Assembly: GCA_048938895.1 (NCBI GenBank) | Contig: JBHLLU010000048.1 | Location: forward strand, 1 to 31,360 | Origin: Promethearchaeota archaeon | GTDB lineage: Archaea > Asgardarchaeota > Lokiarchaeia > Sigyniarchaeales > SOKP01 | Reading direction: 5' to 3' | Length of the DNA: 31,360 bases | In this document: one piece after another, positions 29,338 through 31,360 of the stretch | How the letters are laid out: every line of letters begins with the position of its first letter | How positions within the stretch are numbered: position 1 is the stretch's first letter | Program-made: the position numbers and the translations under genes | Notes under the pieces: generated by a model | Told to the model about the DNA's origin: nothing | Seen by the model: only the letters and a program-made list of their open reading frames with translations | Database searches by the model: none

Positions 29338-30372
29338 ATGATTAATGTCTACATTAATAGAGGTTTATATGATTATGTAGGAACTGTATATAGAATAATT
29401 GAAAAATCCACTGGTAAGATACTTTATGGTTTTACTTTAGATACAGTAGACGTAAGATGGCAGAATTATAAAGAGTTTGCTCTGAAAAATCGGCATTCAG
29501 GGAATTTATTACCTATAGAACAAGCCATTTTAGATACAATTGATTCAGGACAAAACCCAGATGATGCATATGTAGTTAAGCCTGTTGAGATCTGCTTTGA
29601 TTACAAAACATTGAGAATTAGGGAAGACTATTGGATAAATAAACATGAGACAAGAAATCCCTTAAAGGGATTTAATACTTATAGAGGTGGTGGTGGAGGT
29701 CCTAAAATACATTTACCTATCGGGATTATTGCAAGTTATATAGCAAAAGGTTTAAAGGTAACCAAAATAGCAAATCTTCTTTTTACAGAAAAGAATATAT
29801 TGGTTGGTAGGAAGACCGTTTCACGAAGGATAAACGAATATTGGGGTGGATTCGATAAAGCCAGAGAACTCTTTCTTAAGCCTGTATTAGAAGACCTTAT
29901 AAAAACTGGATTTAATTCTAATGATATCATTGAAGCGTTCGGTAAGAAAGGAAGAAATATAGTAGATCGGTTAATTCCTTCTTTCTTTAATGTCGAGACT
30001 TTTAGTGAAGCCAGAAGAAAATTCTTAGTTGAAATTATTGAAAAATTAATTATTGAAGGATTAGGTCCTGTAGGAATGGTGAAAAGATTAGAACATTTTG
30101 GTGAGAAAGAGATAGCGTCTAGAATCGCTGAAGAGTGGGGTAATCTAAAAAAAGCTCAAAAGGAGTTATGGAGACCAATTATCATACAAAGTTTTAGAGA
30201 TGGAATTAGCGGTTCAGATATTTTAATATCACTTGGTTATAAAGAAACCACAGCCAAGAGAAAGCATAATCAAATTTATGCACGTTTGTTCTGGGGAATG
30301 AGAACCGAAGAGGTTAAGGAATTTGCTCTATCAATCCCATTAGATCAATTAGAATCTATTGTCTATTTTTAA
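29338..30372 (+). CDS. GIY-YIG-like endonuclease with about four C-terminal HTH-like repeats (homing-endonuclease-like)
   Basis: GTVYRIIEKSTGKILYGFT...RWQNY...REDYWINKH...GFNTYRGG follows the GIY-YIG/R/E/N pattern; about 50-aa helical repeats follow. Confidence 0.7.
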   Translation: MINVYINRGLYDYVGTVYRIIEKSTGKILYGFTLDTVDVRWQNYKEFALKNRHSGNLLPIEQAILDTIDSGQNPDDAYVVKPVEICFDYKTLRIREDYWINKHETRNPLKGFNTYRGGGGGPKIHLPIGIIASYIAKGLKVTKIANLLFTEKNILVGRKTVSRRINEYWGGFDKARELFLKPVLEDLIKTGFNSNDIIEAFGKKGRNIVDRLIPSFFNVETFSEARRKFLVEIIEKLIIEGLGPVGMVKRLEHFGEKEIASRIAEEWGNLKKAQKELWRPIIIQSFRDGISGSDILISLGYKETTAKRKHNQIYARLFWGMRTEEVKEFALSIPLDQLESIVYF

Positions 30373-30455
30373 TTTATTATGATAACCAAAAAGTATTTTA
30401 GGTTTTTTATCTTTAGATCCCTATAGAACTGTTTATTAAATAAGATGTGGTGAAT

Positions 30456-31065
30456 ATGGGTCGTCGTAAAAGAAAACAAGTTACTCCTAAAAGAGTTAAA
30501 AGAGTACCAAAGATTTTCACCTGCCCTGAATGATAAGACTGATTCTCAGTTTATCCAGAAATGCGGTGAAAAATCCGTAAAAGTCACAGATATCAAGAAA
30601 AAAGGTGCTTTCGCAACAGTAAAATGTGGAAACTGTGGCTTGACAAAGGAAGTGTTAGTAAATTCTATCTCAGAACCAGTAGATGCCTTTGGGGATTTTA
30701 TAGATATATATTATGCTGATCAAGAACTCCAACGATTAGAGAAGCGAATTCAAAAATTAAAAGAAGAAAATGAATGGGGTGAACTGGCTTTAGGGTACTC
30801 TATTTTATCAGATCTTTGTAAAACTAAAGCTGCGGTATTATTAGAAGAGGAAGATGTGAATTTAGATGAGGTAAATGAGTGGAAAATGAGAAGTGAAAAA
30901 TATAAAAGACTTGAGAAAGATGCTATTTTGAAGCTTGAGACAGATGAACTTGAAAGGGGAGTAAAAACTGATGAAGAATCATTATTTTCTGAAAGTGATA
31001 CAAAGATAAAAAAAGAACGAAAGATAGAAGATATCTTTGATGATCCTGGCTTTTTAGAGTTCTAA
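30456..31065 (+). CDS. elf1: Transcription elongation factor Elf1 with C-terminal extension, two exons: join(30456..30530,30562..31065), 192 aa
   Basis: GTGGTGA SD, then MGRRKRKQVTPKRVKRVPKIFTCPE|CGEKSVKV...VKCGNCGL...SEPVDAFGDFID. This is the Elf1 basic N-terminus, C4 zinc ribbon and EPVD motif once 31 nt are removed. Confidence 0.92.
30531..30561 (+). other. Putative 31-nt BHB-type intron in elf1
   Basis: Insert TGATAAGACTGATTCTCAGTTTATCCAGAAA splits CxxC and adds stops and a frameshift. Inner hairpin GAUAAGACUGA/UCAGUUUAUC; central helix CCUG/CAGA (one C-A mismatch); two AA^U bulges; exon-exon helix UUUUCACC(U)GC/GCGGUGAAAA. Confidence 0.87.
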
Positions 31066-31135
31066 AACTATTTATTGGAAATAAAATAGTATAAATTAGA
31101 AATAATATCCTACTTTTAGAATTCCGTTTGTCTTT

Positions 31136-31360
31136 TTAACCAGATTGGCTTTTTCGTTTTGCAAAAAGCTGTTTAAGTTCACCCATAATAGCACCTCTAA
31201 GAGATACAGGGCTTGCAGGTCTAGCGGGACCCGAAGGTGGACCTCCGGGAGGTCCAGATGGCGGTGGACCAGGCGGACCCCCAGGTGCTGGCGGAACGCT
31301 TCTTGGAGGGGGACCAGGGGGTCCTCCAGGTGCAGAACCCATAGCGGATGCAGATGCTGC
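31136..31360 (-). CDS. 3' end of a proline/glycine-rich protein with a C-terminal amphipathic (WH2-like) helix; 5' part outside the window
   Basis: Frame is open to the window edge (AASASAMGSAPGGPPGPPP...); ends SLRGAIMGELKQLFAKRKSQSG. Confidence 0.75.
   Translation of the reverse strand, partial: AASASAMGSAPGGPPGPPPRSVPPAPGGPPGPPPSGPPGGPPSGPARPASPVSLRGAIMGELKQLFAKRKSQSG

Follow-up and report, generated by a model that had tools for sequence, protein, structure and literature searches.

A 31,360-nt stretch of DNA from a Promethearchaeota archaeon (GenBank assembly GCA_048938895.1, contig JBHLLU010000048.1, positions 1 to 31,360 of the forward strand), hereafter the window, encodes the elongation factor Elf1 in a gene whose reading frame is broken by a short insert within the first CxxC of the zinc ribbon. 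We propose that elf1 carries a 31-nt archaeal bulge-helix-bulge (BHB) intron between codons 25 and 26, a reading drawn from the gene sequence, its predicted fold and the same locus in related genomes, to which we assign a probability of roughly 85%.

An interrupted elf1 gene

The start codon of the gene is the ATG at 30456, with GGTGA just before it (30449-53). Exon 1 (30456..30530, forward strand), delimited by reading the sequence and by the Pfam profile PF05129 (Elf1), comprises 25 codons for a basic N-terminal tail and the first cysteine of the zinc ribbon. It ends in TGC CCT GAA followed directly by TGA TAA, the split falling after codon 25, and the unspliced RNA codes only for a 25-residue peptide. 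Exon 2 (30562..31065, forward strand; PF05129), with 167 codons and a stop at 31063-31065, opens with TGC GGT GAA at 30562 in the +1 frame and encodes the second cysteine of the first CxxC, the remaining zinc ribbon and a long C-terminal extension. The predicted BHB-type intron occupies the 31 nt between them (30531..30561, forward strand), with predicted cuts at 30530/30531 and 30561/30562. A first-pass annotation made from the sequence alone had placed an insert splitting the Elf1 CxxC at these positions and had noted that the unspliced RNA meets TGA TAA at once; both statements held when the coordinates were re-read.

Exon 1 corresponds to positions 1-26 of PF05129 (E = 0.0054) and exon 2 to positions 28-78 (E = 7e-10; 39.3 bits against a gathering cut-off of 29.8). 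Once precisely 30531-30561 is deleted, the two become one continuous match and the first CxxC is whole again. The product has the attributes expected of an Elf1, namely a zinc ribbon scoring above the Pfam gathering cut-off and four cysteines, the first of which is supplied by exon 1. Solved Elf1/ELOF1 chains align to exon 2 starting just past their first zinc knuckle (E = 1.9e-5). Spliced in silico, the gene yields a protein of 192 residues with an intact C-P-E-C zinc knuckle that is identical to its uninterrupted orthologue at locus L059 across the first 60 residues, and the amino acids encoded by exon 1 are identical to those of uninterrupted orthologues. A profile search of the whole host genome returned no second Elf1 match.

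The mechanical list of open reading frames (ORFs) holds only two pieces of this gene, one of 28 amino acids (30447-30533) and one of 141 amino acids with a TTG start (30640-31065) that begins after the zinc ribbon. An ordinary gene caller would therefore lose the Elf1 N-terminus and the first zinc knuckle, as had been remarked of the ORF track at first reading. The C-terminal extension (30720-31062, forward strand) continues for ~110 residues past the zinc ribbon and is rich in charged residues; Elf1 open frames across the order span ~190-220 amino acids, so that a long extension is common to relatives.

Fold of the insert and flanking exons

The ends of the two exons are predicted to pair with one another. 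The 5' strand of this exon-exon helix (h) lies at 30514..30524 and its 3' strand at 30563..30572, with 30514-30521 paired to 30565-30572 and 30523-24 to 30563-64, giving 10 bp with U30522 bulged. The insert itself folds into a hairpin (h', 30532..30555): 30532-42 pairs with 30546-55 in a 10-bp stem that includes a single bulged A, and UUC forms the loop (30543-30545). Between the exon helix and the hairpin is a 7x7 loop made up of a 4-nt central helix (H) and two AAU bulges. The exon strand of the central helix, CCUG (30525..30528), faces the intron strand CAGA (30556..30559) through the pairs C30526-G30558, U30527-A30557 and G30528-C30556, leaving C30525 and A30559 unpaired (3/4). The bulges lie at 30529..30531 on the 5' side and 30560..30562 on the 3' side, all of these elements being on the forward strand. 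Each bulge has a predicted cut past its second A, following the rule described for cbf5 introns, in which cleavage falls between the second and third bulge nucleotides (PMC2738675). Cuts at AA^U in both bulges join the exons in frame and restore the colinearity of Elf1 in silico, yielding the CPECGE junction that had been put forward at first reading.

This fold is more stable than chance would give: shuffled sequences average -9.05 kcal/mol (sd 2.53), its own minimum free energy (MFE) is -18.4 kcal/mol (z = -3.70), and 1 of 200 shuffles was as stable. In the unconstrained MFE structure the exon helix, the hairpin and the 5' AAU bulge all appear, as do the three central pairs, and the 3' side has four unpaired nucleotides. 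Every pairing listed in the first-pass annotation is present; that annotation passed over the bulged A of the intron stem, and the MFE structure departs from its fold in those four nucleotides. Shuffles confined to the insert combined 3/4 or more central pairs with an intron helix of 8 bp or longer in 19 cases out of 100,000, and when both cut sites were slid from -4 to +4 the motif was present at shift 0 only. With H at 3/4 and h and h' at 10 bp each, the window allele fits a relaxed BHB definition (at least 3/4 central pairs and 3-nt bulges, here with both flanking helices).

Conservation of structure across alleles

From all loci we gathered 33 distinct insert-bearing junction sequences, aligned as 18 alleles of the window's genus (alignment A1) and 15 alleles of other genera (A2), with controls in which the pairing partners were displaced by 1-3 columns. 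Standard pairs fill 90.7% of cells in A1 (44-53% in the slid controls) and 91.6% in A2 (37-52%). Both sides of a pair have changed in 8 of the 24 pairs of A1 and in 6 pairs of A2, and in neither alignment was the covariation score matched by any of 500 shuffles. The exon helix is paired in 99.4% of A1 cells, and in the hairpin 7 of 10 aligned pairs show changes on both sides. The central-helix pair that involves the proline wobble base occurs in A1 as AU (13 alleles), UA (4) and GC (1). Given no structure, RNAalifold predicted the exon helix and the hairpin with 7 + 7 unpaired columns between them, precisely the room that a 4-nt helix and a 3-nt bulge would take up on each strand. Across the 33 alleles the exon helix reaches at least 8 bp in all and the central helix at least 3/4 pairs in 32, and individual MFE folds contain the intron hairpin in 33/33 and the exon helix in 30/33; an adjacent-run measure of the intron helix under-counts alleles with a mismatch at the second pair (9/33 score 1). 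A1, A2 and RNAalifold alike show a structure maintained by compensatory change. As far as these alignments go, insert sequences diverge while pairing persists, that is, the structure is conserved and not the sequence.

The same alleles bear on two explanations in which the insert stays in the mRNA and is dealt with by the ribosome. An exon-1-frame stop lies inside the insert in 32 of the 33 alleles, and the remaining 28-nt insert shifts the frame into a stop 5 nt past its end. Excising the insert in silico leaves every parsed insert-bearing allele with an uninterrupted full-length product. Translational bypass of the phage T4 gene 60 type would have the ribosome leave the mRNA at the final codon of exon 1, pass over the hairpin and resume on a matching codon just ahead of exon 2, matching take-off and landing codons being the defining feature of such hopping. 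The stop directly past the last exon-1 codon, the hairpin behind it and the identity of the last three insert bases with the last exon-1 codon in 14 of the 33 alleles all suit this scheme. The codon match fails, however, in the other 19, including the window (GAA and AAA) and all A2 alleles (for example AAT and GAT), and where it occurs, the symmetric G + AA in the BHB motif accounts for it. Bypass also leaves unexplained the helix between exon 1 and exon 2, the fixed 7x7 spacing and the covariation of the proline wobble base with the base five positions before exon 2, and we regard it as highly improbable.

A programmed +1 ribosomal frameshift at CCT GAA TGA, by which the insert would be read through to add ~10 residues to the zinc knuckle, is suggested by the window, where the exon-2 frame is open back across the whole insert. 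In 23 of the 33 alleles, however, the insert contains an exon-2-frame stop, leaving only 10 in which a single frameshift could suffice, and ten 30-nt inserts are in frame yet contain stops. The product would moreover have CX12C instead of the CxxC that is conserved in all uninterrupted orthologues, which makes a frameshift the least credible account of the insert. Removal of the insert from the RNA as a BHB intron remains our preferred reading.

Exon co-adaptation and selection

The exon helix is built from the codons for I-F-T-C and C-G-E-K, and the choice of synonymous codons within it tracks the presence of the insert. In the window's clade TTC is used in 16/16 insert-bearing and 7/26 insert-free alleles, ACC in 16/16 and 6/26, GGT in 16/16 and 19/26, and GAA in 16/16 and 20/26, while codons immediately flanking the helix vary freely in both classes. 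The computed exon duplex energy is -9.97 kcal/mol (-10.2 to -9.3) in insert-bearing alleles compared with -5.13 kcal/mol (-9.6 to -2.4) in insert-free ones. Two insert-bearing alleles show 0-1 differences over the 30 sites of the helix region, against 4-19% divergence elsewhere in the gene; pairs of unlike insert state total 28 differences over 240 helix-region sites and 340 over 4371 sites elsewhere.

Codon differences among insert-bearing alleles are predominantly synonymous, both overall (7122 synonymous, 2862 non-synonymous) and in exon 1 alone (876 and 139), and on these counts both exons are under purifying selection in insert-bearing alleles. Such selection is hard to reconcile with a non-spliced insertion, in which a small mobile or slippage-derived sequence would have left the gene dead or used in pieces. 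In favour of this account are the patchy presence of the insert on the elf1 tree (described below) and the lack of any listed RNA run for the locus. It would have to accommodate purifying selection acting even on the 25 codons of exon 1, the open product recovered on removal in every parsed allele, compensatory change within the insert, and the fact that this is the sole Elf1 match in the genome; we consider it very unlikely.

Several observations nevertheless weigh against a BHB intron at this site. A search listed no RNA sequencing runs for 30380-31070. The window allele falls short of the canonical hBHBh' motif, its central helix being 3/4, and the classifier of a recent preprint (10.64898/2026.10.13.758758), in the portion that describes it, terms 3/4 motifs 'relaxed', a class that is common by chance when flanking helices are not required; the window allele goes beyond what that class asks for in having both flanking helices, each of them long. 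The MFE structure has a 1x4 loop at the 3' site, with C30525 opposite four unpaired nucleotides, and since C30525 and A30559 are unpaired beside the 3' bulge, the position of the 3' cut is not set by structure alone. Of the 33 alleles, 5 have all four central pairs, 27, including that of the window, have three, and one has two; of the 10 loci spot-checked outside the genus (see below), 4 have a 4/4 central helix, three of which repeat alleles of the 33, L181 being new. Taken together, the 4/4 and 3/4 alleles indicate an insert family that spans canonical and relaxed forms. A phylogenetically independent test of exon-helix stability had low power, with 4-5 of 8 pairs going the expected way, 0 the opposite way and a median p of 0.06. 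Finally, insert-free alleles already have 7-10 of the 10 exon-helix pairs (G-U allowed), and the helix is thus partly built into the coding sequence. This pairing potential suggests that the site was pre-adapted to host such an intron.

Splicing machinery of the host and proposed processing

The host genome (G000), a Loki-type Asgard metagenome-assembled genome of 4.65 Mb in 174 contigs (98.7% complete, 7.5% contamination), encodes both a splicing endonuclease and an RtcB-type ligase. Profile searches found two EndA paralogues (PF01974; 101.5 and 68.1 bits, on contigs C83, around 69740-69964, and C123, around 60606-60854) and one RtcB (566.5 bits, contig C5). In the parts of the literature relevant here, the Asgard EndA is described as an (alpha-beta)2 type with an L1 loop (PMC5829648), and Asgard tRNA genes as heavily interrupted, with two EndA paralogues in most Asgard genomes (preprint 10.64898/2026.10.13.758758). 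Two paralogues in the host fit the broad-specificity (alpha-beta)2 type. ARAGORN recognised only 24 tRNA genes in the host genome and called introns in 13 of these, several of them dubious and mostly of 6-33 nt; many host tRNA genes are probably too interrupted for ARAGORN to recognise. Both this result and the two EndA genes agree with the two reports as far as their relevant portions go. Within the window, neither Rfam at gathering thresholds nor ARAGORN gave any match.

Under the proposed mechanism, the exon ends of the elf1 pre-mRNA would pair through 10 bp while the intron folds into its 10-bp hairpin, and the symmetric 7x7 loop between these helices would form the 4-nt central helix (3/4 pairs here) and the two AAU bulges. 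The host EndA would cut past the second nucleotide of each bulge, and RtcB would join the exons and probably circularise the intron, the outcome being an mRNA for the 192-residue Elf1 with its C-P-E-C zinc knuckle intact. That cleavage and ligation proceed in vivo through EndA and RtcB is inferred, as would be any regulatory role of splicing.

A variant of this scheme, in which the insert is excised from the RNA by an enzyme other than EndA and RtcB or is cut elsewhere in the AAU/AAAU repeats, draws on the imperfect central helix of 28 of the 33 alleles and on the fact that registers 0, -1 and -2 of the window (both cuts shifted together) yield the same mRNA. The geometry is, however, exactly that of an EndA substrate, EndA and RtcB are both encoded, and relaxed motifs are reported to be cleaved by hetero-oligomeric EndA in the cbf5 pre-mRNA (PMC2738675, in the sections concerned). 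We give the variant a small chance and retain excision by EndA at the two AAU bulges.

Distribution among relatives

Comparison of elf1 in related genomes, which the first-pass annotation had proposed as a check, revealed alleles with and without the insert at an identical codon boundary, with pairing kept by compensatory changes. All elements of that first reading that were open to a check were borne out. The order was sampled with 154 genomes, 136 of which have an Elf1 match, and the interrupted state was scored by pattern, either as a hidden Markov model (HMM) match starting at profile position 26-28 or as a full-length match with internal stops. Within the window's genus (g1), 49 of 54 genomes have an Elf1 match and 19, the window included, carry the insert; all 19 sequences were read, and the insert lies at exactly the same codon boundary, with 31 nt in 18 genomes and 32 nt in one. 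By the HMM pattern, elf1 is interrupted in 40 of the 120 genomes of the window's family that have a match, compared with none of 16 in the other two families with matches. The interrupted genomes belong to four genera: g1 (19), g16 (4/4), g21 (1/9) and g22 (16/37). Spot checks outside the window's genus found a 28-32-nt insert at the same site in 10/10 cases; the remaining 11 interrupted g22 genomes are scored by the HMM pattern only. Recurrence of the same insert site in dozens of separately assembled genomes excludes an assembly artefact.

The five genomes of the genus that lack an Elf1 match were queried with the exon-2 protein, and by this query only a contig-end fragment was found in G005 and nothing credible in G006, G020, G023 and G068. 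Two genomes, G004 (contigs C94 and C171) and G045 (C35 and C41), each have an interrupted and an uninterrupted Elf1-type match; their contamination is 9% and 7%, and the dual matches may reflect a strain mixture or a paralogue. In the L138/L180 lineage the elf1 frame appears to start with ATA, and several other alleles start with TTG. Submitter taxon labels look inconsistent: an insert-bearing Promethearchaeota elf1 contig (L116) is titled Nanopelagicaceae bacterium, and near-identical loci are titled Hod-, Hermod-, Odin- or Thorarchaeota.

History of the insert

Insert-free genes included, the sample holds 82 distinct spliced coding sequences, 32 of them with the insert. On a quick maximum-likelihood tree of these sequences (582 columns), no fewer than 15 changes of insert state are needed, of which well-supported branches force 8 or more, against a shuffled mean of 25.6; the tree covers a single gene, and its count of changes could be inflated by recombination. 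L059, the allele closest to that of the window at 90% nucleotide identity, is insert-free. Hairpin tips are alike across genera, with GG, a short A/U loop and CC. This similarity is compatible with common descent, and we therefore favour one old gain in the family ancestor followed by many precise losses as the most economical history, the tree counts fitting gain or loss alike. Precise intron loss by way of spliced RNA has been proposed for cbf5 in the part of PMC2738675 that addresses it.

A second coding-sequence insert in the same genome

A further BHB insert lies outside the window in the same genome, at C101:4435-4464 (corresponding to L146:836-865), the best match of the genome scanning described below. 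It is 30 nt long; its central helix is 4/4, its exon helix has 11 bp and it includes a hairpin, and its unconstrained MFE structure is the textbook hBHBh' motif (z = -2.83). Removal of the insert joins pieces of 160 and 305 codons into a PurM-like (AIRS) protein, the downstream piece starting at AIRS profile position 43 and running on into AIRS_C. In relatives this gene is mostly one open frame of ~468 amino acids. Among 30 PurM-like loci of relatives, 8 have a 29-30-nt insert at the same point, 9 have none and 13 could not be parsed by the pattern; the full motif folded in 7 of the 8 inserts, and one allele has compensatory exon-helix changes.

Two scans of the genome searched for further cases, the first with H at least 3/4, h at least 8, h' at least 6, a length of 14-70 and exon 1 of at least 15 codons, the second with H 4/4, h at least 5, h' at least 4, a length of 14-110 and exon 1 of at least 25 codons; both are blind to introns with weak exon helices. 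Neither showed bulk enrichment: scan 1 gave 9297 motif matches with 179 ORF-compatible, against 218 and 204 in frame-shifted controls, and scan 2 gave 33,993 matches with 384 ORF-compatible, against 377 and 370. Of the 22 top matches judged by eye (9 + 13), C101 is the only convincing one besides elf1. The remaining top matches were set aside because they look like neighbouring genes, most having a downstream piece with a methionine close to the junction.

Neighbouring genes

Directly upstream of elf1 (29338-30372, forward strand) lies a gene for a 344-residue protein whose N-terminus carries a GIY-YIG nuclease domain (E = 1.3e-4, a value right on the Pfam cut-off). Close homologues adjoin elf1 in G052 and G053, both insert-bearing. 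As a required intron-mobility factor this gene was rejected, since among the genus's 54 genomes it adjoins elf1 in just three (G000, G052 and G053) and 16 other insert-bearing genomes do not have it there; it looks like a sporadic, possibly mobile gene. At the other side of elf1 an open frame on the reverse strand runs off the window end (31136-31360), its product rich in proline and glycine (GGPPGPPP-type repeats) followed by a short basic C-terminal tail.

Significance and comparison with known systems

Promethearchaeota are among the closest prokaryotic relatives of eukaryotes, and the finding extends BHB introns in reading frames to an Asgard lineage, to a eukaryote-like transcription factor and to one more gene in that genome. 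Natural alleles that have the intron or lack it number in the dozens, which opens its gain, its precise loss and the co-adaptation of exons to direct test in prokaryotes, and such interrupted genes are ones that gene callers miss or truncate. More broadly, coding-gene BHB introns could be recurrent and fluid in this one Promethearchaeota family, with at least two genes (elf1 and the PurM-like gene) dependent on the tRNA-splicing enzymes, introns gained or precisely lost between sister species, and exon codons selected for the splice structure; splicing may then couple elongation-factor production to EndA/RtcB activity in the manner of XBP1/HAC1. This wider picture, which goes well beyond the elf1 insert, we offer tentatively, as one that may equally prove wrong. 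The passages of a 2020 paper (PMC7714728) that treat coding-sequence BHB introns in archaea place them only in cbf5 of Crenarchaeota, and a full-text literature search, with supplements and most subscription journals outside its scope, found no report of a BHB intron in elf1 or in any Asgard protein-coding gene.

The spliced product resembles Elf1/ELOF1 (PF05129) in its zinc ribbon and basic N-terminal tail and differs in its long C-terminal extension (192 residues in total). As a short mRNA intron that would be excised by an endonuclease and whose removal changes the frame and is needed for an active protein, the insert recalls HAC1/XBP1, in which joining is by tRNA ligase (Rlg1p in yeast, RtcB in animals). 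There, however, IRE1 acts on paired stem-loops under stress regulation, whereas for elf1 we propose EndA acting on a BHB motif. The BHB intron in the 5' untranslated region of Haloferax volcanii HVO_1309, the one other mRNA case that the literature search turned up, is likewise an mRNA substrate of EndA, shown as such in vivo and in vitro in the relevant part of PMC7714728; it sits in an untranslated leader, unlike the elf1 insert, which lies within the reading frame. With archaeal tRNA and rRNA BHB introns the elf1 insert shares the motif, the presumed enzymes and the size range of host tRNA introns, but its host RNA is an mRNA and its exon helix consists of codons kept through synonymous-site choice.

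The closest parallel is the cbf5 intron of Crenarchaeota (Desulfurococcales and Sulfolobales) as set out in the pertinent sections of PMC2738675 and PMC7714728. That too is a short BHB-type intron in coding sequence, often of relaxed motif, which breaks an essential motif, has predicted cuts between the second and third bulge nucleotides and shows a patchy distribution read as gain and secondary loss; its cleavage is by hetero-oligomeric EndA, to which we liken the predicted cleavage of the elf1 insert. The two differ in gene and phylum, and the host genome does not have the cbf5 intron, which is defined by an insert at the catalytic Asp codon: its cbf5 is uninterrupted, the TruB_N matches lying within one 342-residue open frame with no internal stops. 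Splicing of cbf5 is known from sequenced cDNAs, whereas that of elf1 is predicted from DNA alone, and presence and absence of the elf1 insert vary far more densely among close species than in cbf5, as the change counts over the 82 alleles attest. On the comparative evidence, the proposal that the elf1 insert qualifies, in relaxed form, as an archaeal BHB intron with the crenarchaeal cbf5 pre-mRNA intron as its nearest precedent is strongly supported.

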